A stretch of DNA of 64,000 nucleotides from an uncultured Verrucomicrobiota bacterium (GCA_903825435.1 CAIKAP010000199.1:1771-65770), one strand, 5' to 3'; shown: positions 11,704 through 25,401, counted from the stretch's first letter. Notes: generated by a model not told the origin, from the sequence alone. Made by a program: numbers and translations.

Positions 11704-12528
11704 ATGCCGCACATGTGGAAACAGACGCAGGACCACGAGCATACAGGCGCGATGCTGGAGCGGTTCGGTTCCGTCACGCAACTGCTGATCTGGATCAACG
11801 TCGCCGTCTTCTTGGGCCAGCTTGGTTGCGCGGCGTTCCGGTGGGGTGCGTTTGAACAACTCTTTGCGCTTCAAGCCGACGGCATCCAAAGGGGATTTCT
11901 CTGGCAGCCGCTGACCTACATGTTCCTGCATGGCGGCATCTGGCATCTGCTGGTGAATCTGTTCGTGCTCTGGTTTTTCGGGCGCGAGGTGGAGTTGTTC
12001 CTCGGCGCGCGCCGGTTCACGGAGCTGTACCTCGGAGGCGGCGTTGCGGGGGCGGTCTTGTGGCTGGCGTTCAACCTTCAGTCCACCGTTCCCGTCATCG
12101 GTGCGTCGGCGGCGGTGCTGGCGTGCGTGATCGCGTTTGCGACGATGTTCCCGGACCGCGAGGTGACGCTGCTGGTGTTCTTCGTTTTGCCAGTTACGTT
12201 CAAAGCAAAATACCTCGCGCTGATCGCCATCGCGTTCGACGCGGTGCCGTTGCTTGAAGGCGCCTCGACTAACGTCGCGCACCTCGCTCACCTTGGCGGT
12301 GCCGCGCTCGGCTGGGTCTTTGTCAAGGCGCTTGGCTACGGCCGTCCGTTGCAGCTTCGCTGGCTGCATCGGGCAAGACCGTTGCCGCGCTCAGCCGAGG
12401 ACTTCATGCGGGAAGAGATTGATCCGATCTTGGACAAGATTTCCCGCGACGGGATGCAGAGTCTGACGCCACGCGAGCGCAAGATTCTTGAATCAGCGCG
12501 CGATCTGTTGCAAAAACGGCAACGGTGA
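11704..12528 (+). CDS. Rhomboid family intramembrane serine protease
   Basis: Contains FLHGGIWHLLVNL, the catalytic Ser motif GASAAVLACV and the His in AHLAHLGGAALGW. The ATG at 11704 is chosen. The stop overlaps the glnE GTG (GTGA). Confidence 0.8.
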   Translation: MPHMWKQTQDHEHTGAMLERFGSVTQLLIWINVAVFLGQLGCAAFRWGAFEQLFALQADGIQRGFLWQPLTYMFLHGGIWHLLVNLFVLWFFGREVELFLGARRFTELYLGGGVAGAVLWLAFNLQSTVPVIGASAAVLACVIAFATMFPDREVTLLVFFVLPVTFKAKYLALIAIAFDAVPLLEGASTNVAHLAHLGGAALGWVFVKALGYGRPLQLRWLHRARPLPRSAEDFMREEIDPILDKISRDGMQSLTPRERKILESARDLLQKRQR

Positions 12529-15500
12529 AACGCATGGCTACCTCCACGCGCCGCCCCTCGCTCAGCCGGCTGTTCGGTGCGCGGCCGCTGCCGAAACCGG
12601 AAGTGGAGAAGATCCTGCGTGCATACGGGTTCCGCGACGCGGCGCAGATCATCGCCGCCTTGCCGCGGTTGCACGCTAATGAACAGCAACGCCGCAGCTT
12701 GCGGCTCTTGTTGCCGCGACTGGTCCGCGCCTGCGCAGCATCAGCGGATCCCGACCGCGCGTTCATCCATTTTGAACGGCTGGCCGCCGCGTTGCCTCAC
12801 CCGAACATGCTGTACCATTACCTGCTGGATGCGCCCGAGGCGCTTGACCTCTTAGTGACGGTGTTCGCCCATAGCCAGGCGCTCTCCGACACGCTCGCCC
12901 GCAACGCCGGGTACTTCCATTTCCTCATCAGCCCGGAAACGCTGCGCGCGCCGCGTTCGAAAGCATGGCTCCATGCTGAACTGACACGTCTGCTCCTTGG
13001 TAGCCGCGTGCCCGCTGAGCGCTACGACATCGTCCGCCGGTTCCGACGGCGCGAGACGTTGCGGATCGGCGCGCGTGACCTCGTCGGACATTCCACGGTC
13101 GAGGAAACCACCCTCGAACTGTCCAACCTCGCCGACGTTTGTCTCCAGGCCGTTTTCGACATCGCGCAGCAGAAGCTCGCCGTGCAGTTCAAGTTGTCAG
13201 GCGACGCCATCCGCCACTTTGCTGTCATCGGCATGGGCAAGCTCGGTGGACAGGAGTTAAACTATTCTAGCGATGTGGACGTGATCTTCGTCTATGACGC
13301 CGACGGCGCGCTCACGACAGCGTTGTCGCGGCAGGAGTTTTTTACCAAGCTTGCCGAGGAGATCATCCGCGCCGTGGGACGACAGACAGACGAGGGGACT
13401 ATCTTCCGCATTGATCTGCGCCTCCGCCCCGAAGGCGCGAGCGGGCCGCTGGCGTTGTCGTTGCCAAACTACGAGAACTATTACGCCGAGCGCGGCGAGA
13501 CTTGGGAACGCATGGCGCTGCTCAAAGCCAGGCCCGTCGCCGGCGATGCCGAGGTGGGCCGTCAGTTCCTCGATCTCGTGCAGCCGTTCGTGTATTCGCG
13601 CCACGCGGGCGAGAACGTCGTCCAGCAGATGGCCGCTATCAAGGCACGCATCGAACGCGAGATCGTCACCGATGGCCAGCTCACCCGGCACGTCAAGCTC
13701 GGCATCGGCGGCATCCGTGAGATCGAGTTCATCATCCAATCGTTCCAGGTGCTGCGCGGCGCGCGCCTACCGGCGGTGCGCGAGCGCAACTCGCTGCGCG
13801 CCTTGTCGATGCTGGTGAAAGCCAACCTGCTCGCCGCCGCCGAGGCCGACGCGTTGGCCGACGCGTACCGGTTCCTCCGCAACGTCGAGCACCGCCTCCA
13901 GATGGAAATGGAATTGCAGACCCACACAATTCCCGACGAGGAACAGGCGCTCGTCCGCCTCGCCCGCAGTCTCGACTTCCGTACCGTGAAAGAATTCTTT
14001 ACCGCGCAGCAAACGCACACCGGCGCCGTTCGCCGCATCTACGAGGCCGTCCTCGCCAACGCCGATCAACGCATCACACCCGCCGTCGCGCAGCTTGCCG
14101 ACGACAAACTTCCCGACACGCTTCGCGACGCCGGGTTTGCCGACGTGCCCGCCGCCGTCCGTCGCGTCGCCAACCTGCTACACGGTTCCGGTTTCATCCA
14201 TATCTCGCAACGGACCAAGGAGCTTTTCGCCGGCGTGTTCGCCGTCGCGCTCGATTGCTGCCGCAAGCTGCCCGATCCCGATGCCGCGCTGTTGCACTTC
14301 GATGCATTTGTCGGCGCGTACGGTTCGCGCGGCATGCTTTACGAGGTGTTGTTACGGCATCCGAAGCTCATCGAGGTGCTTTTCCGTCTGGGTGACGGGA
14401 GCCGCTATTTCTCCGAGACGCTCCAGCGCGAGCCGGGCCTCTTTGACGAGCTATGCCACGGTGGCGATCTGAACGAACCGAAGAACATTGACCGGATGTG
14501 CGACGAATTGATCGCAGCGGTCACCAACGCGCCCGACACGCCGCCGTTGGACGTGGTGCGCCAATGGAAACGCGCCGAAATGCTTCGCGTTGGTATCGAG
14601 GACATCATGACCTTGGTGGACGTCGAACATCTGCACCGTGAAATCAGTTCGCTCGCCGAGGCTGCCCTCCGGTTTGTACTTGACCAAGCCCGTCGCGAGT
14701 TGCATTTGGACGTGTTGCCCTTCGCTGTCATTGCCCTCGGCAAATTCGGCGGTGAGGAACTTGGCTACGGCGCCGACCTCGATGTCCTCTTCGTCGGCGA
14801 AGAACAAACCGACGCCATACGTCTTGCTGTGAAAGTCATCGAGTATATGTCGTTGCCGACGGACTACGGTTCGCTCTTTGCCATGGACACGCGGCTGCGG
14901 CCCGATGGCGAGAAAGGCGTCCTCGCCAGTTCGTTGGAGGCCCACTGCGATTACTACCTCCAGCGGGCACAGCTTTGGGAGAAACTCGCGTTGACTCGCG
15001 CCCGGTACGTCGCCGGTGACGAATCGTTGGGGCGCAGATTGGTTGAGATGGTCCACGGTGTCATCTACGCCGGGCCGATCACCGACGCCGATATCACCGA
15101 AATCCGCCGCATGCGCCGCCGTATCGAGACCGAGCGCGGCGATCAGACCTGCGTCGAACTCGAATTCAAAACCGGCCCTGGCGGCCTGATGGACGTAGAG
15201 TTTCTTGTCCAGGCACTCCAACTTCGCTACGGTTACGCCCATGCCGCGCTTCGTGGCCCGCACACGCTCGCGACGTTGAACCGCCTAACGGCGCTCGGCT
15301 TGGTCGAGGAAAAGGACAGTTTTGTTCTACGCCGCCACTACTTGTTCCTGCGGCGCATCGAGTCCGTGCTGCGTCGCGCTGAGAACACCAACGTCTCCCG
15401 TCTGCCGAGTAGCGAACGCGAAGCGGGATTGCTTGCTCGCCGGCTCGGCTTCGTTGACGCCGCTGCCTTCCTTGACTCGTACCGACAAGCCACGCGGGTC

Positions 15501-15542
15501 GTGCGCGACATCTACAACCGCGTGATGAGCCAGTCGACGTGA
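12525..15542 (+). CDS. glnE: Bifunctional glutamine synthetase adenylyltransferase/adenylyl-removing enzyme
   Basis: 1005 aa with two nucleotidyltransferase cores: GMGKLGGQELNYSSDVDVIF and LGKFGGEELGYGADLDVLF. Confidence 0.9.
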   Translation: MKRMATSTRRPSLSRLFGARPLPKPEVEKILRAYGFRDAAQIIAALPRLHANEQQRRSLRLLLPRLVRACAASADPDRAFIHFERLAAALPHPNMLYHYLLDAPEALDLLVTVFAHSQALSDTLARNAGYFHFLISPETLRAPRSKAWLHAELTRLLLGSRVPAERYDIVRRFRRRETLRIGARDLVGHSTVEETTLELSNLADVCLQAVFDIAQQKLAVQFKLSGDAIRHFAVIGMGKLGGQELNYSSDVDVIFVYDADGALTTALSRQEFFTKLAEEIIRAVGRQTDEGTIFRIDLRLRPEGASGPLALSLPNYENYYAERGETWERMALLKARPVAGDAEVGRQFLDLVQPFVYSRHAGENVVQQMAAIKARIEREIVTDGQLTRHVKLGIGGIREIEFIIQSFQVLRGARLPAVRERNSLRALSMLVKANLLAAAEADALADAYRFLRNVEHRLQMEMELQTHTIPDEEQALVRLARSLDFRTVKEFFTAQQTHTGAVRRIYEAVLANADQRITPAVAQLADDKLPDTLRDAGFADVPAAVRRVANLLHGSGFIHISQRTKELFAGVFAVALDCCRKLPDPDAALLHFDAFVGAYGSRGMLYEVLLRHPKLIEVLFRLGDGSRYFSETLQREPGLFDELCHGGDLNEPKNIDRMCDELIAAVTNAPDTPPLDVVRQWKRAEMLRVGIEDIMTLVDVEHLHREISSLAEAALRFVLDQARRELHLDVLPFAVIALGKFGGEELGYGADLDVLFVGEEQTDAIRLAVKVIEYMSLPTDYGSLFAMDTRLRPDGEKGVLASSLEAHCDYYLQRAQLWEKLALTRARYVAGDESLGRRLVEMVHGVIYAGPITDADITEIRRMRRRIETERGDQTCVELEFKTGPGGLMDVEFLVQALQLRYGYAHAALRGPHTLATLNRLTALGLVEEKDSFVLRRHYLFLRRIESVLRRAENTNVSRLPSSEREAGLLARRLGFVDAAAFLDSYRQATRVVRDIYNRVMSQST

Positions 15543-15821
15543 CCAGCAACCGGCTTCACGGCGATCACCCCGTCTGTCGATAGTTTGTTCGTCGGGCAGA
15601 AAGGTCTGGAAGTCGGAGAGGAATGTTTCCTGCGACTTCGATCCCTCGGTGACGATCAGCAACGGACGGTTGGAGATTCGCGTCAGCAAGGCCGCGACAA
15701 ACGGCTGTCCGGCGTCGGCCATCGAATTCAGAGACAAAAAAGCCCCTTCCGAGAGTCTCCGTTTCAACGGGGGTGTCAACGGAGACCCCATCGCAACTTC
15801 GAACAGCGTGTCTTGGCTCAA
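15543..15821 (-). pseudogene. Possible N-terminal remnant of transcription-repair coupling factor (Mfd-like)
   Basis: EGAFLSLNSMADAGQPFVAALLTRISNRPLLIVTEGSKSQETFLSDFQTFL resembles the first ~80 aa of Mfd (G..G.a.a.l.a.l...p.lvv......a..l..dl..fl). The frame then degenerates and runs into the glnE 3' end. Confidence 0.35.
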
Positions 15822-16041
15822 ACTGTGTAGCAGCCGCCGTCTCGGTGTTGCCCGGGACGGGCGCTACTACACGAACAACGTCGGCAGTCTAGCATCCAAC
15901 GGCCAGCAAGGCAACATGCCGGGGTTTCAGCTTGTGTCTAATCCGCTGCCGAAGTACTACTTTCAAAGTACGGCAGCATTGATCCGTTATGACAATCCAA
16001 CTGACCTGCTGTTCGTGGCGTCATCAGAAAGATACCAATGA
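15649..16041 (+). CDS. Hypothetical small protein upstream of the kinase (true start uncertain, possibly ATG 15916)
   Basis: The ORF stop overlaps the kinase start (ATGA at 16038-16041). The 5' half overlaps the Mfd-like remnant on the other strand, so only the 3' part is likely to be coding. Confidence 0.25.
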   Translation: MTISNGRLEIRVSKAATNGCPASAIEFRDKKAPSESLRFNGGVNGDPIATSNSVSWLKLCSSRRLGVARDGRYYTNNVGSLASNGQQGNMPGFQLVSNPLPKYYFQSTAALIRYDNPTDLLFVASSERYQ

Positions 16042-17165
16042 CTGGGATACGGCATAGTCGTACAAGTATATTCGACCTTCAGCCGGACGATGACATTATT
16101 ATCGGTGATCTAACCTATTCCGTGAAGCAGTCATCATGCGGTGGGATGGGATTTGTCCTCTTTCTTCGGAGAGAGTCTCGGAGAGGCGTCGCAATGGCAC
16201 CTCAGCATGTGAGCGCCGACAGCGATGACCCGATAGACTTTCTGAACAGTCTCAACGCGCAGTCTCGTCAAGGCCGCATAAGTGTTCACGGGACTAAGCT
16301 GGCGTTGAAAACTGTCCGACCTGACGCTGTGGGTGCCGAAGGCAAGGCGCTTTTCAAGCGAGAGCTCACAATCTGGGCTGCGCTTCGCCACCCAAGCATT
16401 GTGTGCCTTAATGAGATTTTGGACGCAGGTTCCGACGGCTGGGTCGCCGCAATGGATTGGTGTCAGGGTTCTCTGAGAGACATTCTAAACAAGAGGCAAC
16501 GGCTATCCCTCAAAGAAGCCACTGGCATTATCGGCGACCTTCTCGACGGCCTCGCTTTCGCGTACCATCAGGACCGGGTACTCCACCTCGACCTCAAGCC
16601 GGAAAATATTCTCTATGACCTCGATATTGCGCCAACGGCCAGAAATATTCTCTACGAGGTTGCTGGTGACGCCCAAGCCAAGATTCCCAATACCCCGATA
16701 AACAAATGCAGGTTCATGTTGGCTGATTGGGGTATTGCGTCAATCAAGCAACCACAGCTCAACGCAATTGCAGGAACGCCGCCCACATCGCAAGCAGCGC
16801 TGCGTACTTTCAATCACATGGGTACTCTGCTTTACATGGCACCCGAGAGATTCTGTGAAGGTTTTCATTCCTCCATTGCCTCAGACGTCTTTTCGCTTGG
16901 GATGATTTACCTCGAAATGCTGACTGGCACCCTACCATACAGACAGGGTGTTCACCCTGTTGAGTCCCTTCTCACCGGGCGGTACCACCAAGACGCAGAA
17001 GTTCTTATGTCCAAAGCAAGAGTTCCGAGGAGCATTTGCAGGCAGATCCTTTCCATGCTGGCAGCTAATCCTAACAGCCGACCAAACGATCACACTGCCT
17101 TGGCCGGCTCGATAGCAAGAGCTTACAAAGAGACTGGCAGTTTGATCTCTAAACTGTTAAACTGA
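16038..17165 (+). CDS. Hanks-type Ser/Thr protein kinase, atypical (HLD catalytic loop, DWG instead of DFG, two inserts)
   Basis: G-loop CGGMGFV, beta3 Lys in TKLALKTV, Glu in FKRELTIW, VLHLDLKPENIL, MLADWG, LYMAPERF, DVFSLGMIYLEMLTG. GC is lower than in the flanks. Confidence 0.8.
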   Translation: MTGIRHSRTSIFDLQPDDDIIIGDLTYSVKQSSCGGMGFVLFLRRESRRGVAMAPQHVSADSDDPIDFLNSLNAQSRQGRISVHGTKLALKTVRPDAVGAEGKALFKRELTIWAALRHPSIVCLNEILDAGSDGWVAAMDWCQGSLRDILNKRQRLSLKEATGIIGDLLDGLAFAYHQDRVLHLDLKPENILYDLDIAPTARNILYEVAGDAQAKIPNTPINKCRFMLADWGIASIKQPQLNAIAGTPPTSQAALRTFNHMGTLLYMAPERFCEGFHSSIASDVFSLGMIYLEMLTGTLPYRQGVHPVESLLTGRYHQDAEVLMSKARVPRSICRQILSMLAANPNSRPNDHTALAGSIARAYKETGSLISKLLN

Positions 17166-17172
17166 CTATCCA

Positions 17173-17796
17173 ATGAGTATTTTTGATCTTTTTAAGCGGC
17201 GCGAGGATGCACACCGTGATTTGGAGAGCTTGCCGTCAATGAAACGCCCGGCGAGAGCGGTAGAGTTTGATCTCACGTGCAAGCGTGTTGCGGACCTTCA
17301 GGCCGTGGGACGTGAGGCCGACGCAAGCAGAGCAATCTCGGATTACCTCGAAGGACTCTTTCAAGAATGGAAGAAGGAGCCCGACAACTCAGTTTGCTTG
17401 AGGCTCCTTTGTACTGCCGCCAAGAAATTTGGAGCACTTGAGAAAGCGAAGGATTACTTTTACAAAGTCATCCAAGCCAACGAGGTTACACCTATAGTTG
17501 ATCTTACGGTCGTCTATTACGACTTAGGTGGAATCTATCACAAATTGTCGGGAACCACCGAAAAGGAGTTTTGGTGTTTCCGTATGGCAACCGAAGCTGT
17601 CCCTCCAAAAAACTGCAAGTTTCCCGCAACTAAGAAGGAAAAAGCTAAGGCACACCATTTTGCCTTTACCTGCATGCGCGCCGGTCACTTCGGGACCGAG
17701 GAAGAAGCACGATACCATGACCGCAAGCGTAGAGAGCTAGCACCGGAAATCGACTTCGATGATTTTAAGCAATGGGTGAAGTGGCTAGCAGGATAA
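17173..17796 (+). CDS. Hypothetical helical protein (207 aa)
   Basis: Starts 7 nt after the kinase stop on the same strand, with low GC. It is predicted to be all-helical and TPR-like by eye, with no motif I can name. Confidence 0.55.
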   Translation: MSIFDLFKRREDAHRDLESLPSMKRPARAVEFDLTCKRVADLQAVGREADASRAISDYLEGLFQEWKKEPDNSVCLRLLCTAAKKFGALEKAKDYFYKVIQANEVTPIVDLTVVYYDLGGIYHKLSGTTEKEFWCFRMATEAVPPKNCKFPATKKEKAKAHHFAFTCMRAGHFGTEEEARYHDRKRRELAPEIDFDDFKQWVKWLAG

Positions 17797-17913
17797 TGAG
17801 CGAATCTCAAGAATCGCTCTTTACGACAAAATCGAAGATTAACCCTTGCCGAGACGTTTCTGGAGATATTGAAAGCGGCACGGTGGAACGATGATCCAGC
17901 AAGTTGAGATACA

Positions 17914-18480
17914 ATGAATATGATTCGGATTAGTAAACTTGATGCTGCACGTCGTCAGTTGTTTGCCGCACTACAGCTTTACTTTGAGGATGGAGACACG
18001 GTCGCAATACACACGCTGGCTGCGGTCGCGCACGAGATTTTGTCTGTTCTGGTTCGGAAGAAAGGCGGAGCGACGATGCTTGATTGGGTTAAGGCGCTTG
18101 TCACGCCAGAGTTTGAGAAACAACTGATTGATTGGGCTCGCCAGCCGCAGAACTTCTTCAAGCATGGAGGTAAAGACGCGAACTCAAATATCGAGTTCGA
18201 TACAAAACTGACCGAGTTCTTCTTGTTTGATGCCTGTTTAGCGTATGGCAAGGTCGAGGCAATTCCGAAAGGCGACATCACCGCCGAAGCCACGCGAATT
18301 CAAATCGCATATCTTACATGGTATCTTCTGCATAGGCCAACAGCGCTTCGACCTGATAGTGACCTCGCAAGAATGGTCAGCGCATTTGAGCCTTATAAGC
18401 ACGGCACCAGAAGTGATTATCTGAAGCAGATCAGACTGGCGCGCCATGACTGGTCGGGGCCATCGGATACTACGGTGTAG
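17914..18480 (+). CDS. Hypothetical helical protein (188 aa)
   Basis: Same strand and same low-GC islet. Its stop lies 4 nt from the convergent mdh stop. Contains ..ARQPQNFFKHGGKD.. but no assignable family. Confidence 0.55.
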   Translation: MNMIRISKLDAARRQLFAALQLYFEDGDTVAIHTLAAVAHEILSVLVRKKGGATMLDWVKALVTPEFEKQLIDWARQPQNFFKHGGKDANSNIEFDTKLTEFFLFDACLAYGKVEAIPKGDITAEATRIQIAYLTWYLLHRPTALRPDSDLARMVSAFEPYKHGTRSDYLKQIRLARHDWSGPSDTTV

Positions 18481-18484
18481 GCAG

Positions 18485-20933
<2,449 letters not shown>

Positions 20934-23571: not shown

Positions 23572-23776
23572 GACAGCCAGAATCGTCGTGAACGGAAAAG
23601 CGCAGCAGCTCACGCAGCCATCTTCGGTGGCTGATCTGTTGGTTGCACTTGGCTGGAAATCGACGCAGGTCGTTGTGGAGCGAAATGGGTATGTGGTACC
23701 GCGTTCCGATGTCGGGTTGGTGATGTTGGAAGAAGGCGATCAAGTGGAAATCATCTTGCCAGTGGCGGGCGGATGA
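23561..23776 (+). CDS. thiS: Sulfur carrier protein ThiS
   Basis: 71 aa ending ..ILPVAGG (C-terminal Gly-Gly). Overlaps the thiH end by 11 nt. Confidence 0.85.
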   Translation: MSHKTARIVVNGKAQQLTQPSSVADLLVALGWKSTQVVVERNGYVVPRSDVGLVMLEEGDQVEIILPVAGG

Positions 23777-23806
23777 GGTAAAAAAACAGCGAACAAGGAG
23801 GTAGTT

Positions 23807-24220
23807 ATGAAATTGAAACAGTTTGTGTTGTTTATGGTATTGTTGAGCGCTTCTTTGGCCTTTCAAGGATGTGCAGTGCTGTTGGTTGGGGCTGCCGCCG
23901 CCGGTGCCACCGGCGGGGTTGTGTCTTACTTCGGTAACGAACTGCAAACAATCCAAGAAGTTACCATCGACAAGGCTTGGACGGCTGCCCAAGCCACAGT
24001 AAGTGAGTTGCAGTTTACGACCGAGAGCAACCGTTGTCGCAAGGATGGTGTGAAGGCACTTCTCTTTTGTAGAAACGCGCAAGGTCAACAGGTTGTGTTT
24101 CAGTTATTCCGCCAGTCGGATAGGCTGACAGAGATTCGAGTGCGTGTCGGCCAGTTCGATACCGCCGCGAACCGGCAGGGTGCCCAGATGGTTTATGATA
24201 AGATGAGATCTAGGATGTAA
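23807..24220 (+). CDS. Lipoprotein, hypothetical (DUF3568-like)
   Basis: Signal peptide plus lipobox MKLKQFVLFMVLLSASLAFQGC. 137 aa. Confidence 0.6.
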   Translation: MKLKQFVLFMVLLSASLAFQGCAVLLVGAAAAGATGGVVSYFGNELQTIQEVTIDKAWTAAQATVSELQFTTESNRCRKDGVKALLFCRNAQGQQVVFQLFRQSDRLTEIRVRVGQFDTAANRQGAQMVYDKMRSRM

Positions 24221-24375
24221 TAGGTTGCGAATTAATATGTTGCTATCTTGTCTTTCTTTGTATTGATTGTTTGAAGTTTGTTCTTTTGAAGTGGCGAACA
24301 AAGAAGTTAAAGGGATGATAACAACTTTTTTGTTGCAAAAACACGGAGAGCACACTAGCTTCCAAAGTAGATAGT

Positions 24376-24452
24376 GATTCAGGAGCTTGCGCGTTCTTCA
24401 GAGGGGTTCCCCACCCCCACCTCCTTGGCGTGCGGCTCCTGAATCTCTTTTT
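24376..24452 (+). promoter_or_regulatory. Long-loop hairpin with T-run in the fab operon leader (terminator/attenuator-like)
   Basis: A perfect 11-bp stem: gattcaggagc (24376-24386) pairs with gctcctgaatc (24435-24445). It is followed by tcttttt, 20 nt before the fabD ATG, inside a 250-nt AT-rich spacer. Confidence 0.4.
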
Positions 24453-24471
24453 GTACGGAAATCAACAAGTT

Positions 24472-25401
24472 ATGAAGAAAACAGCATTGTTATTTGCAGG
24501 CCAAGGCAGTCAGAGTGTCGGCATGGGGCGCGACATATGTGAGCGCTTTGAGTGTTGTCGCACGACATTTGCTCAAGCCAATGAGATTCTGGGTCGCGAT
24601 CTTCAAAAGATCTGCTTTGAGGGGCCTGAATACCTTCTGACGCAGACCGACAATGCACAACCATGTATACTGGTGACCAGCCTTGTTTGCCTCGAAGCCT
24701 TGCGCTCCCAAGTGCCGAATCTGACGTTTGGCGCTGCTGCTGGCTTGTCGCTGGGGGAGTTTACCGCCCTGACTGCTGCGGGAGCGCTGAGTTTCCGAGA
24801 TGGACTCAACCTCATTCAGCAACGGGGACGATTCATGCAGGACGCCTGTAACTCAACCAGTGGCAGCATGGCATCCATCATTAGTATGGACGACACCGCC
24901 TTGGTTGAGGTTTGCCTGGAAGCTGACGTCGACATTGCCAACCTCAACTGCCCTGGCCAGACCGTCATCTCCGGCCAGAAGGACAAGATTGCCAAAGCTG
25001 TAGAACTGGCCAAGGCTCGGGGCGCCAAACGCGCCATTCCGCTCCAGGTCGCCGGTGCCTACCACTCCCGCCTGATGCAGGCCGCTCAGGAGAAACTGGG
25101 CACGGTCTTGGACGAGGTGACCATGCACGAATCCTCCGTGACAGTCGTTCACAACGTCACCGCCCGCCCCGCCGTTGGGGTGGGGGAGATCAAGAATCTA
25201 TTGGTGCGGCAAGTGACCTCCTCTGTCCGTTGGGCTGAGTCCATGGAATGGTTGATCGGACAGGGCTACACTCATTTCATCGAGCTTGGCCCCGGTAACG
25301 TCCTCAGCGGCCTGATGAAACGAATCAACAAAGATGTCGAGATGCTCAACGTCGCCGACTCCGCCACCTTGGATGCCACCGTTGCTAAATTGGCGGCCTA
25401 A
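24472..25401 (+). CDS. fabD: Malonyl CoA-ACP transacylase
   Basis: Contains LLFAGQGSQSVGMG and the active-site motif GLSLGEFTAL. Confidence 0.9.
   Translation: MKKTALLFAGQGSQSVGMGRDICERFECCRTTFAQANEILGRDLQKICFEGPEYLLTQTDNAQPCILVTSLVCLEALRSQVPNLTFGAAAGLSLGEFTALTAAGALSFRDGLNLIQQRGRFMQDACNSTSGSMASIISMDDTALVEVCLEADVDIANLNCPGQTVISGQKDKIAKAVELAKARGAKRAIPLQVAGAYHSRLMQAAQEKLGTVLDEVTMHESSVTVVHNVTARPAVGVGEIKNLLVRQVTSSVRWAESMEWLIGQGYTHFIELGPGNVLSGLMKRINKDVEMLNVADSATLDATVAKLAA

Follow-up and report, generated by a model that had tools for sequence, protein, structure and literature searches.

A 64,000-nucleotide stretch of DNA from an uncultured Verrucomicrobiota bacterium (GCA_903825435.1 CAIKAP010000199.1:1771-65770; the whole stretch is hereafter called the window) carries, between glnE and mdh, a low-GC islet of four same-strand open reading frames (ORFs; 15543-18484), which an earlier sequence-only reading had taken for a candidate defence or signalling module made up of an atypical Hanks kinase and three unknown partners. 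The account that we favour, at about even confidence, is that the islet is a composite of a kinase-TPR module, an unrelated gene (ORF4) and an artefactual ORF (ORF1), with the kinase-TPR module most likely being of a conflict or defence type. The evidence that carries this account comes from the gene neighborhoods of the kinase and its partner, from the relationships of the individual products, and from the contents of the same chromosomal slot in sister genomes.

A kinase and a helical-repeat partner predicted to act as one unit

The two genes at the center of the islet are:

16038-17165, plus strand: soluble non-RD Hanks-type Ser/Thr kinase, 375 aa (Pfam Pkinase)
17173-17796, plus strand: ORF3, TPR-like helical-repeat partner of the kinase ("type A"), 207 aa (assigned from a structural model and from co-occurrence)

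Homologues of the kinase were examined in 42 loci, namely eight species-representative genomes, three exact look-ups and 31 metagenome contigs. A partner gene lies directly 3' of the kinase, or is fused to it, in 40 of the 42, and of the two loci that lack one, L002 carries a truncated kinase and L140 a divergent copy. The longer kinase homologues of 529-566 aa are fusions to an ORF3-like C-terminal region (P0044, P0058, P0094 and P0101). Given that the two proteins are fused into a single polypeptide in relatives and that the partner is almost always present, these contexts lead us to propose, with high confidence, that the kinase and ORF3 act together as a single functional unit. Thus, of the three unknown partners originally suggested, ORF3 is tied to the kinase, while no homologue of ORF1 or of ORF4 occurs in any of the 42 loci; likewise, co-occurrence in other genomes extends to the kinase-ORF3 pair and not to the set of four genes.

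The partners are of two types. Type A partners are homologous to ORF3 along their full length; at one locus (L005, 9023-11014) three tandem type A copies stand behind a single kinase, two of them read as a single 438-aa ORF. Type B partners have only the first ~60-100 residues in common with ORF3 (31-37% identity), followed by an unrelated domain of ~180 aa (L001, 8975-9760; L091, 9025-9225 and 11734-12297; L125, 7027-8595; and P0088, where the partner is fused to the kinase), and that of L125 is lengthened by leucine-rich repeats (LRR_4, 4.5e-13). As the first ~80 residues are common and the C-terminal part is exchangeable, the partner is most likely a regulatory and ligand-recognition subunit, in which the conserved N-terminal segment is likely to be the kinase-docking part and the variable C-terminal part the recognition part.

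ORF3 belongs to a small family, for which 1.84 billion proteins yield 83 representatives, most of them 205-225 aa in length, and it keeps all of the residues conserved across that family. Its AlphaFold2 model (pLDDT 87.7) is a right-handed solenoid of ten helices arranged as helix-turn-helix repeats, and Foldseek matches this model to a consensus TPR, the TPRs of OGT and KLC, and MamA with probability 1.00 (E 3e-4 to 4e-3; TM up to 0.63, target-normalised). In direct profile comparisons the Pfam TPR models remain below threshold (TPR_8, 13.3 bits against a cut-off of 25.7, E 0.097; TPR_1, 11.2 bits against 27.8). On the strength of the predicted fold, we regard ORF3 as structurally a TPR-like protein-binding module. 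The sequence-only reading, which could place none of the partners in a family, is thereby superseded for ORF3; its description of ORF3 and ORF4 as helical agrees with the models, which are all-helical (pLDDT 88 and 87).

The C-terminal tail of the kinase (G-x-F-S-K-L-F/L-N; 17139-17162) resembles the N-terminus of the partner (M-G-L-F-D-F-L-K-P-K; 17173-17202), both being short amphipathic motifs, of which only "NGTFS" is left where the two proteins are joined in the fused relatives. These similar motifs might serve as a peptide for docking or as a membrane-binding helix, or they might be the trace of a gene fission.

The kinase matches Pfam Pkinase (PF00069) over residues 84-354 with 104.6 bits (cut-off 31.7, E 7.6e-30), and its closest solved structures, StkP and PknB, are found at E about 1e-15, over residues 84-196 only. 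Its family comprises more than 100 homologue clusters at 37-59% identity, almost all of them 334-340 aa long and obtained from metagenomes and metagenome-assembled genomes; the named homologues come from Verrucomicrobiota, with one from Sphingobacteriales. An alignment of 20 members reveals as invariant G35-G36-M37-G38, K91 (in the beta3 motif A89-x-K91), E109, H183-L184-D185, K187, N190, D230-W231-G232, P269-E270, D283 and R348, while A268 of the APE motif (268-270) is nearly so. Because they are invariant across this alignment, HLD (non-RD) and DWG can be regarded as family-wide traits rather than defects. The initial description of an atypical Hanks kinase with all of its catalytic residues and with no sensor domain is borne out by the Pkinase match, the profile scan and the alignment. 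The two inserts that it listed as further peculiarities are both present; however, they are only partly private, with about half of their length common to the family: between the Gly-loop and the beta3 Lys there are ~13 extra residues family-wide and ~23 more in the window kinase alone, and before DWG ~13 family-wide and ~13 more in the window kinase alone. The private 13-residue insertion before DWG equals in length the 39-nt spacing of a 15-nt direct repeat (16604-16618 and 16643-16657, coding for NILYD and NILYE), which suggests that it may be an old in-frame duplication. The other private insertion, which follows the Gly loop (16188-16270), has a GC content of 0.57, against 0.52 in the rest of the gene. 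A public call of the kinase that starts at M53 (P0001, 323 aa) is too short and drops the Gly-rich loop; homologues align with the kinase from residue 1 and, together with other calls, support the length of 375 aa.

The two private insertions, which are seen in no homologue, could be taken to mean that the islet is foreign DNA in decay, inert and at present without a function in its host, and the truncated or insertion sequence (IS)-disrupted copies in other lineages and the gene remnant nearby (see below) point the same way. We consider this quite unlikely: the kinase, ORF3 and ORF4 are all intact, the invariant catalytic residues and the conserved partner residues are kept, the islet sequence is 99.98-100% identical across separate metagenome contigs, and Logan contigs from three studies spanning 2016-2020 have no differences from the window within the cassette. 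The islet was detected in freshwater and lake metagenomes from three studies, and no joint representing an islet-less form of the locus was found in four freshwater or lake metagenomes.

Patchy spread and mobility of the kinase pair

The kinase family occurs in eight of ~185,000 species-representative genomes, all of them from Verrucomicrobiota, and the flanking genes differ in each. The pair forms a low-GC islet in L003-L006 as well (for instance, 0.41-0.50 against 0.57-0.63 in L005, and 0.46-0.50 against 0.62-0.66 in L006). In two loci (L118, 5320-6770; L124, 7912-10631) a tyrosine integrase and a tRNA gene (for Asp and Ser, respectively) lie 1-2 kb downstream, which makes the pair cargo of tRNA-targeting integrative elements there; an integrase also lies beside the pair in L114, and an ISL3 transposase immediately upstream of it in L094. 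Two loci carry decayed copies (L002 and L091). In L091-L093, an IS21 element splits a type B partner into pieces of 66 and 187 aa beside an intact 338-aa kinase, which is seen on nine contigs.

The mfd-mdh slot as a hotspot of accessory genes

The remaining features of the region are:

12525-15542, plus strand: glnE, glutamine synthetase adenylyltransferase (Pfam GlnE, 2.4e-114, and GlnD_UR_UTase); left flank
15585-15821, minus strand: remnant of the N-terminus of mfd, transcription-repair coupling factor, ~79 codons; ancestral left edge of the variable slot
15649-16041, plus strand: ORF1, 130 aa, GTG start; very probably not a gene, a chimeric ORF
15806-18486, no strand: DNA differing from the sister genomes, ~2.7 kb, filling the mfd-mdh slot (delimited by blastn anchors)
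17914-18480, plus strand: ORF4, 188 aa, independent all-alpha single-gene family (assigned from the contexts of its homologues)
18485-19411 (alternative end 19423), minus strand: mdh, malate dehydrogenase (Pfam Ldh_1_N and Ldh_1_C); conserved right flank and right edge of the slot

The coordinates and spacings were re-derived and agree throughout with those first given: the stop of ORF1 and the ATG of the kinase overlap as ATGA, 7 nt separate the kinase stop from the start of ORF3, and the stop of ORF4 and the 3' end of the convergent mdh lie 4 nt apart. The compositional dip is equally real. In 300-nt windows the GC content is 0.45-0.57 within 15850-18550 against 0.58-0.68 in the flanks; in 600-nt windows the islet falls to 0.46-0.49, the mean of the whole window being 0.588 +/- 0.039; and its lowest 1-kb block is 17001-18000 (0.481). 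GC content at third codon positions (GC3) is 0.55 for the kinase and 0.53 for both ORF3 and ORF4, against 0.77-0.85 in host genes (glnE 0.78, mdh 0.85, HNH 0.84); the mfd remnant has 0.72. A search around the islet for direct or inverted repeats, tRNA genes, promoter or terminator consensus sequences and Rfam families returned nothing beyond chance, and no insertion scars.

Beginning at the mdh stop (18487), contigs of sister genomes run collinear with the window over 7.6 kb or more (76.6% nucleotide identity to L193), with Mdh 88-89% identical (L190 and L193) and HNH 89-94% identical. On the other side collinearity resumes at the 5' end of mfd (window 15590-15805, 74.5% nucleotide identity to L193 5836-6051), and blastn aligns nothing between these anchors. 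The ThiG of the window belongs to a cluster at 90% identity in which one protein bears the name "Verrucomicrobia bacterium". A second low-GC patch in the window (23701-24800, 0.47), around a DUF3568 gene, lies inside the block collinear with the sister genomes and is for that reason conserved sequence and not an island.

The slot between the anchors is filled differently in each lineage. In L193/L194 (6072-6759) it is ~0.75 kb long and codes for an NTP_transf_2 (MNT) protein and a HEPN protein, which constitute a classical toxin-antitoxin pair; in L190 (2111-2440) it holds the NTP_transf_2 (MNT) gene only; in L084 (4935-6555) it holds DUF2204 and DUF2442 genes with a homologue of ORF4; and in the window its ~2.7 kb accommodate a leader, the kinase, ORF3 and ORF4. 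These comparisons show the mfd-mdh intergenic slot to be a small hotspot of accessory genes, mostly toxin-antitoxin-like. As the contents differ between sister genomes, the cassette is not syntenic across the clade. The sequence-only reading had named clade-wide synteny with host-like codon usage as one of the observations that would refute its proposal; both were looked at, and the islet is absent from the sister slots and atypical in GC3. Thus, with atypical GC3 and non-synteny in close relatives, the islet is horizontally acquired.

The company kept in this slot raises the question of whether the pair is itself a toxin-antitoxin or addiction system, with the kinase as a growth-arresting toxin and the TPR-like partner as its antitoxin, stabilising the mobile elements that carry them. 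The tight coupling of the two genes across 7 nt, the MNT-HEPN and other toxin-antitoxin-like pairs in the slot of relatives, and the carriage of the pair by integrative elements would all fit such a system. However, the IS21-split partner of L091-L093 weakens this explanation, given that the kinase beside it is intact on nine contigs, which is not what is expected if the antitoxin were indispensable. Moreover, natural fusions of kinase and partner are unusual for such pairs, and the partner has no DNA-binding domain. We therefore hold this explanation to be improbable.

ORF1 and the mfd remnant

The minus strand of 15585-15821 codes for a 79-residue stretch corresponding to the N-terminus of Mfd in relatives (62% identity over 79 aa to that of L084, E 4e-31; 69% over 74 aa to that of L193/L194). 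No further mfd sequence was found in the 64-kb window; the remnant abuts the end of glnE, which stands where the sister genomes have the body of mfd. From these comparisons, glnE, though host-like in composition, can be considered not to be the ancestral neighbor of the slot. Public contigs of four runs contain a second copy of 15598-15747, ~91% identical and at about the same depth as the islet. Probably, an intact mfd lies elsewhere in the genome, and the piece in the window is probably the scar of a rearrangement or duplication.

The first ~58 codons of ORF1 are antisense to this remnant, and its 3' part lies on leader DNA specific to the cassette, so that ORF1 straddles the junction of ancestral and inserted DNA. 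Beyond the same strain, tblastn matches it only to DNA at the 5' end of mfd in relatives (residues 1-52 in L084/L085 and 1-72 in L193/L194). Its third codon positions coincide with the antisense mfd frame, and GC3 is 0.71 in its 5' half. When the four islet products were searched against Pfam, NCBIfam, PADLOC and PHROGs, only the kinase had matches, and ORF1 accordingly has none in Pfam, PADLOC or NCBIfam. The genomic comparisons thus suggest that ORF1 is very probably a chimeric shadow ORF across the boundary of ancestral and inserted DNA and not a gene; the proposal that it codes for a partner of the kinase falls with its antisense position and with its absence from the 42 kinase loci.

ORF4 represents a putative mobile single-gene family

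ORF4 has 58 homologues of about 170-200 aa, none with a Pfam domain, which are characterized by the motifs KLDAARRQL, HTLA and (A/Q)NFFKH-x-x-x-D and by the invariant residues K8, A11, A12, R14, Q15, D28, K83, H84 and D88. The closest of them (67% identity; L084/L085) adjoins mdh in the same convergent arrangement with no kinase present, and ORF4 and the mdh 3' end align to that locus as one block at 70% nucleotide identity; upstream of this homologue lie DUF2442, DUF2204, a PMT_2 gene and an intact mfd. Further homologues are found in 14 viral or prophage contigs of IMG/VR (L096-L109), and no conserved neighbor was seen among the 15 homologue loci examined. The GC content of the homologue is below that of its contig in 14 of these 15 loci (the exception is L109), and in 13 of the 14 from IMG/VR. 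As read from translations and not from profiles, the IMG/VR relatives often stand at contig ends or beside ORFs resembling Dam-type methylases, terminases or integrases. Together these contexts mark ORF4 as a member of an independent mobile single-gene family outside the kinase module, whose behavior is that of a single-gene moron or defence-type cargo. Its supposed partnership with the kinase does not survive the absence from kinase loci and the synteny with mdh in a relative that has no kinase.

The AlphaFold2 model of ORF4 is all-alpha (pLDDT 87.1). It has no significant Foldseek match in PDB or BFVD, and a profile search of PDB sequences was empty. The top Foldseek match has an E of 0.4 and is not a HEPN protein; the weak matches include HEPN structures, all with E of at least 1.0 (1ufb, probability 0.51; 9bj6, which is AbiV; 1o3u; 3c18; 2q00). 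Among 31 family members compared with Pfam there is only noise, one touching HEPN_Apea (0.018) and another HEPN (0.12); ORF4 itself does not match Pfam HEPN, nor does BLASTP align it with the HEPN gene in the same slot of L193. The conserved NFFKH motif does not have the arginine of the canonical Rx4-6H that defines the HEPN superfamily. ORF4 does resemble the HEPN-type single-gene Abi protein AbiV in being small and all-alpha, in occurring in viral or prophage contigs and in residing in a toxin-antitoxin hotspot. As a working guess of low confidence, ORF4 might be a stand-alone enzyme of HEPN-like or Abi type.

These results bear directly on the possibility that all four genes belong to one defence or signalling cassette, with each of ORF1, ORF3 and ORF4 dedicated to the kinase as a partner, as their shared strand, close spacing and common low GC content, and the annotation of all four by gene callers in public contigs of the same strain, might suggest. 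We find it very hard to maintain, since ORF1 overlaps the mfd remnant on the opposite strand and extends across the edge of the inserted DNA, ORF4 keeps its collinearity with mdh in a relative where the kinase is missing and stands alone in viral or prophage contigs, and neither has a homologue in the kinase loci. The architecture first described as unprecedented therefore breaks down into the kinase-ORF3 pair, an unrelated ORF4 and a false ORF1.

Functional considerations

For the kinase-ORF3 pair we rank a conflict or defence role first, short of an even chance, because foreign composition, patchiness, carriage by integrative elements, decay, a toxin-antitoxin hotspot, and partner swapping and amplification make up the usual signature of conflict systems; the hotspot site, the integrase and IS neighbors and the swapping of partner domains are circumstantial support for a defence role. 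In such a scenario, a foreign two-gene module would have landed in the mfd-mdh slot, where ORF4, an unrelated piece of mobile cargo, would already have been present beside mdh. The repeat partner, controlling or directing the kinase, would bind a trigger and thereby switch the kinase on, and the activated kinase might phosphorylate host or invader proteins, serving in defence against phages or mobile elements, or in addiction. The results above document the anatomy, the co-occurrence and fusion, the folds, the foreign composition and the lack of synteny; the kinase activity, the sensing by the partner and the defence function are what we infer from them.

Several observations weigh against this role. 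The flanks of the pair are mostly housekeeping genes across the loci, no member of the kinase family was found in IMG/VR viral contigs, and among 66 neighboring ORFs of seven loci there are few PADLOC matches (SIR2, PD-T7-4/DUF4145, DUF3800 and two mad2). The window kinase carries two private insertions, and the combination of a kinase with TPRs is also found in housekeeping regulators such as PknG. Known defence families are matched generically and none specifically. With PADLOC the kinase matches mad6 (4.4e-35), PD-T4-6 (up to 1.1e-31) and Stk2 (4e-8), the mad6 and PD-T4-6 scores being 108-120 bits. PD-T4-6 or mad6 was not adopted as its classification: the best PD-T4-6 model, one of a set with no curated cut-off, gives it 108.5 bits against 380-460 bits for chromosomal kinases of Mycolicibacterium, Nocardia and Pseudonocardia, so that the match does not discriminate. 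The Stk2 match (30.4 bits) has its best stretch only over positions 146-249 of a 500-position profile and is thus not full-length. In NCBIfam the kinase scores 64.5 bits with MAD6 (NF047741; cut-off 460) and 37.8 bits with PglW (NF033442; cut-off 990), both far from what assignment to MADS or BREX would take; no PADLOC model matches ORF1, ORF3 or ORF4, and the other MADS and BREX genes are absent from the islet. The likeness to kinase-based anti-phage systems of the Stk2 type, noted in the sequence-only reading, is therefore visible in the PADLOC check that it had recommended, and amounts to generic, non-specific similarity of kinase domains.

A further point against a conflict role comes from a divergent subclade (L004-L006, L125 and L130-L138), in which the pair is embedded in a larger conserved cluster with a ~287-aa protein, an FHA-domain kinase, an ECF sigma factor, a ClpB-like double AAA+ protein and a calcineurin-like metallophosphatase. 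This cluster looks like ordinary signalling. It favors the idea that the pair serves accessory signal transduction with no role in conflict, as a split counterpart of kinase-TPR proteins like PknG in which the TPR would be a scaffold for substrates and the patchy distribution would reflect lineage-specific turnover of regulatory genes; the housekeeping flanks, the want of a specific defence-family match and the absence from viral contigs are in keeping with it. However, GC3 is strongly foreign in every host examined, the pair is absent from the sister slots, which hold toxin-antitoxin genes, and an integrase with a tRNA gene and IS elements are associated with it. Likewise, the C-terminal domain of the partner is swapped and duplicated among loci, and truncated and IS-disrupted copies accompany a presence in so few species representatives. 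Accessory signalling is hence a serious alternative, to which we assign a lesser though appreciable probability than to a conflict role.

Kinase-based bacterial immunity so far forms a short list (Stk2, PD-T4-6, PglW, MAD6 and KKP), and to our knowledge the defence repertoire of Verrucomicrobiota is almost unexplored. If the conflict or defence role is correct, that list would gain a kinase system of two components whose repeat sensor is modular; if the kinase merely serves accessory signalling, the finding is an ordinary one. The natural fusions and swapped partner domains offer a handle on how a Hanks kinase with no sensor domain is controlled, and, whatever the function of the pair, the mfd-mdh slot is a small accessory-gene hotspot open to mining in related genomes.

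Comparison with known systems

The kinase shares with MADS and BREX a likeness of the kinase domain; it is 375 aa long, while PglW is a large multidomain protein encoded in a BREX operon. With PD-T4-6 and Stk2 it has in common that it is a stand-alone Hanks-type kinase that is horizontally acquired; these systems, however, do not have the second component which is obligatory in the family described here. Ordinary Ser/Thr kinases of Mycolicibacterium, Nocardia and Pseudonocardia match the PD-T4-6 hidden Markov models at E 1e-114 to 1e-138. Automated annotation probably assigns far too many kinases to PD-T4-6, and the non-specificity of such PADLOC-type calls is a useful caution.

PknG of mycobacteria, a housekeeping regulator, is the textbook example of a fused kinase-TPR protein. 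Like it, the present module has a soluble Ser/Thr kinase domain followed by TPR-type helical repeats, with no transmembrane or PASTA sensor, and the fused relatives have the same order of domains. Unlike PknG, the kinase and TPR are here mostly encoded by separate genes, there is no N-terminal rubredoxin-like CxxC, and the kinase is non-RD with HLD and DWG; furthermore, the family is mobile and patchy and not a conserved regulator.

Repeat domains serve as immune sensors in the non-RD receptor kinases of plants and animals and, as TPRs, in the STAND/Avs proteins of bacteria. What the present module has in common with these is an effector enzyme coupled to an exchangeable TPR or LRR recognition part, along with non-RD kinase chemistry; this is an analogy only, and the module contains no NTPase. 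By this analogy, it is conceivable, though we would not stake much on it, that the kinase, together with an exchangeable repeat partner that may be TPR-like, LRR-bearing or of another kind, represents a new bacterial immune module built like a pattern-recognition receptor kinase. In it, the repeat subunit would bind a protein of a phage or mobile element and so activate the non-RD kinase, which by phosphorylation would block infection or arrest the cell. Integrative elements would carry the module into hotspots of toxin-antitoxin and defence genes in Verrucomicrobiota. No description of this kinase family was found in the literature on kinase-plus-TPR defence systems and PD-T4-6. For the present, the pair is best filed under a mobile and as yet uncharacterised non-RD kinase family whose repeat partner is modular and obligatory.

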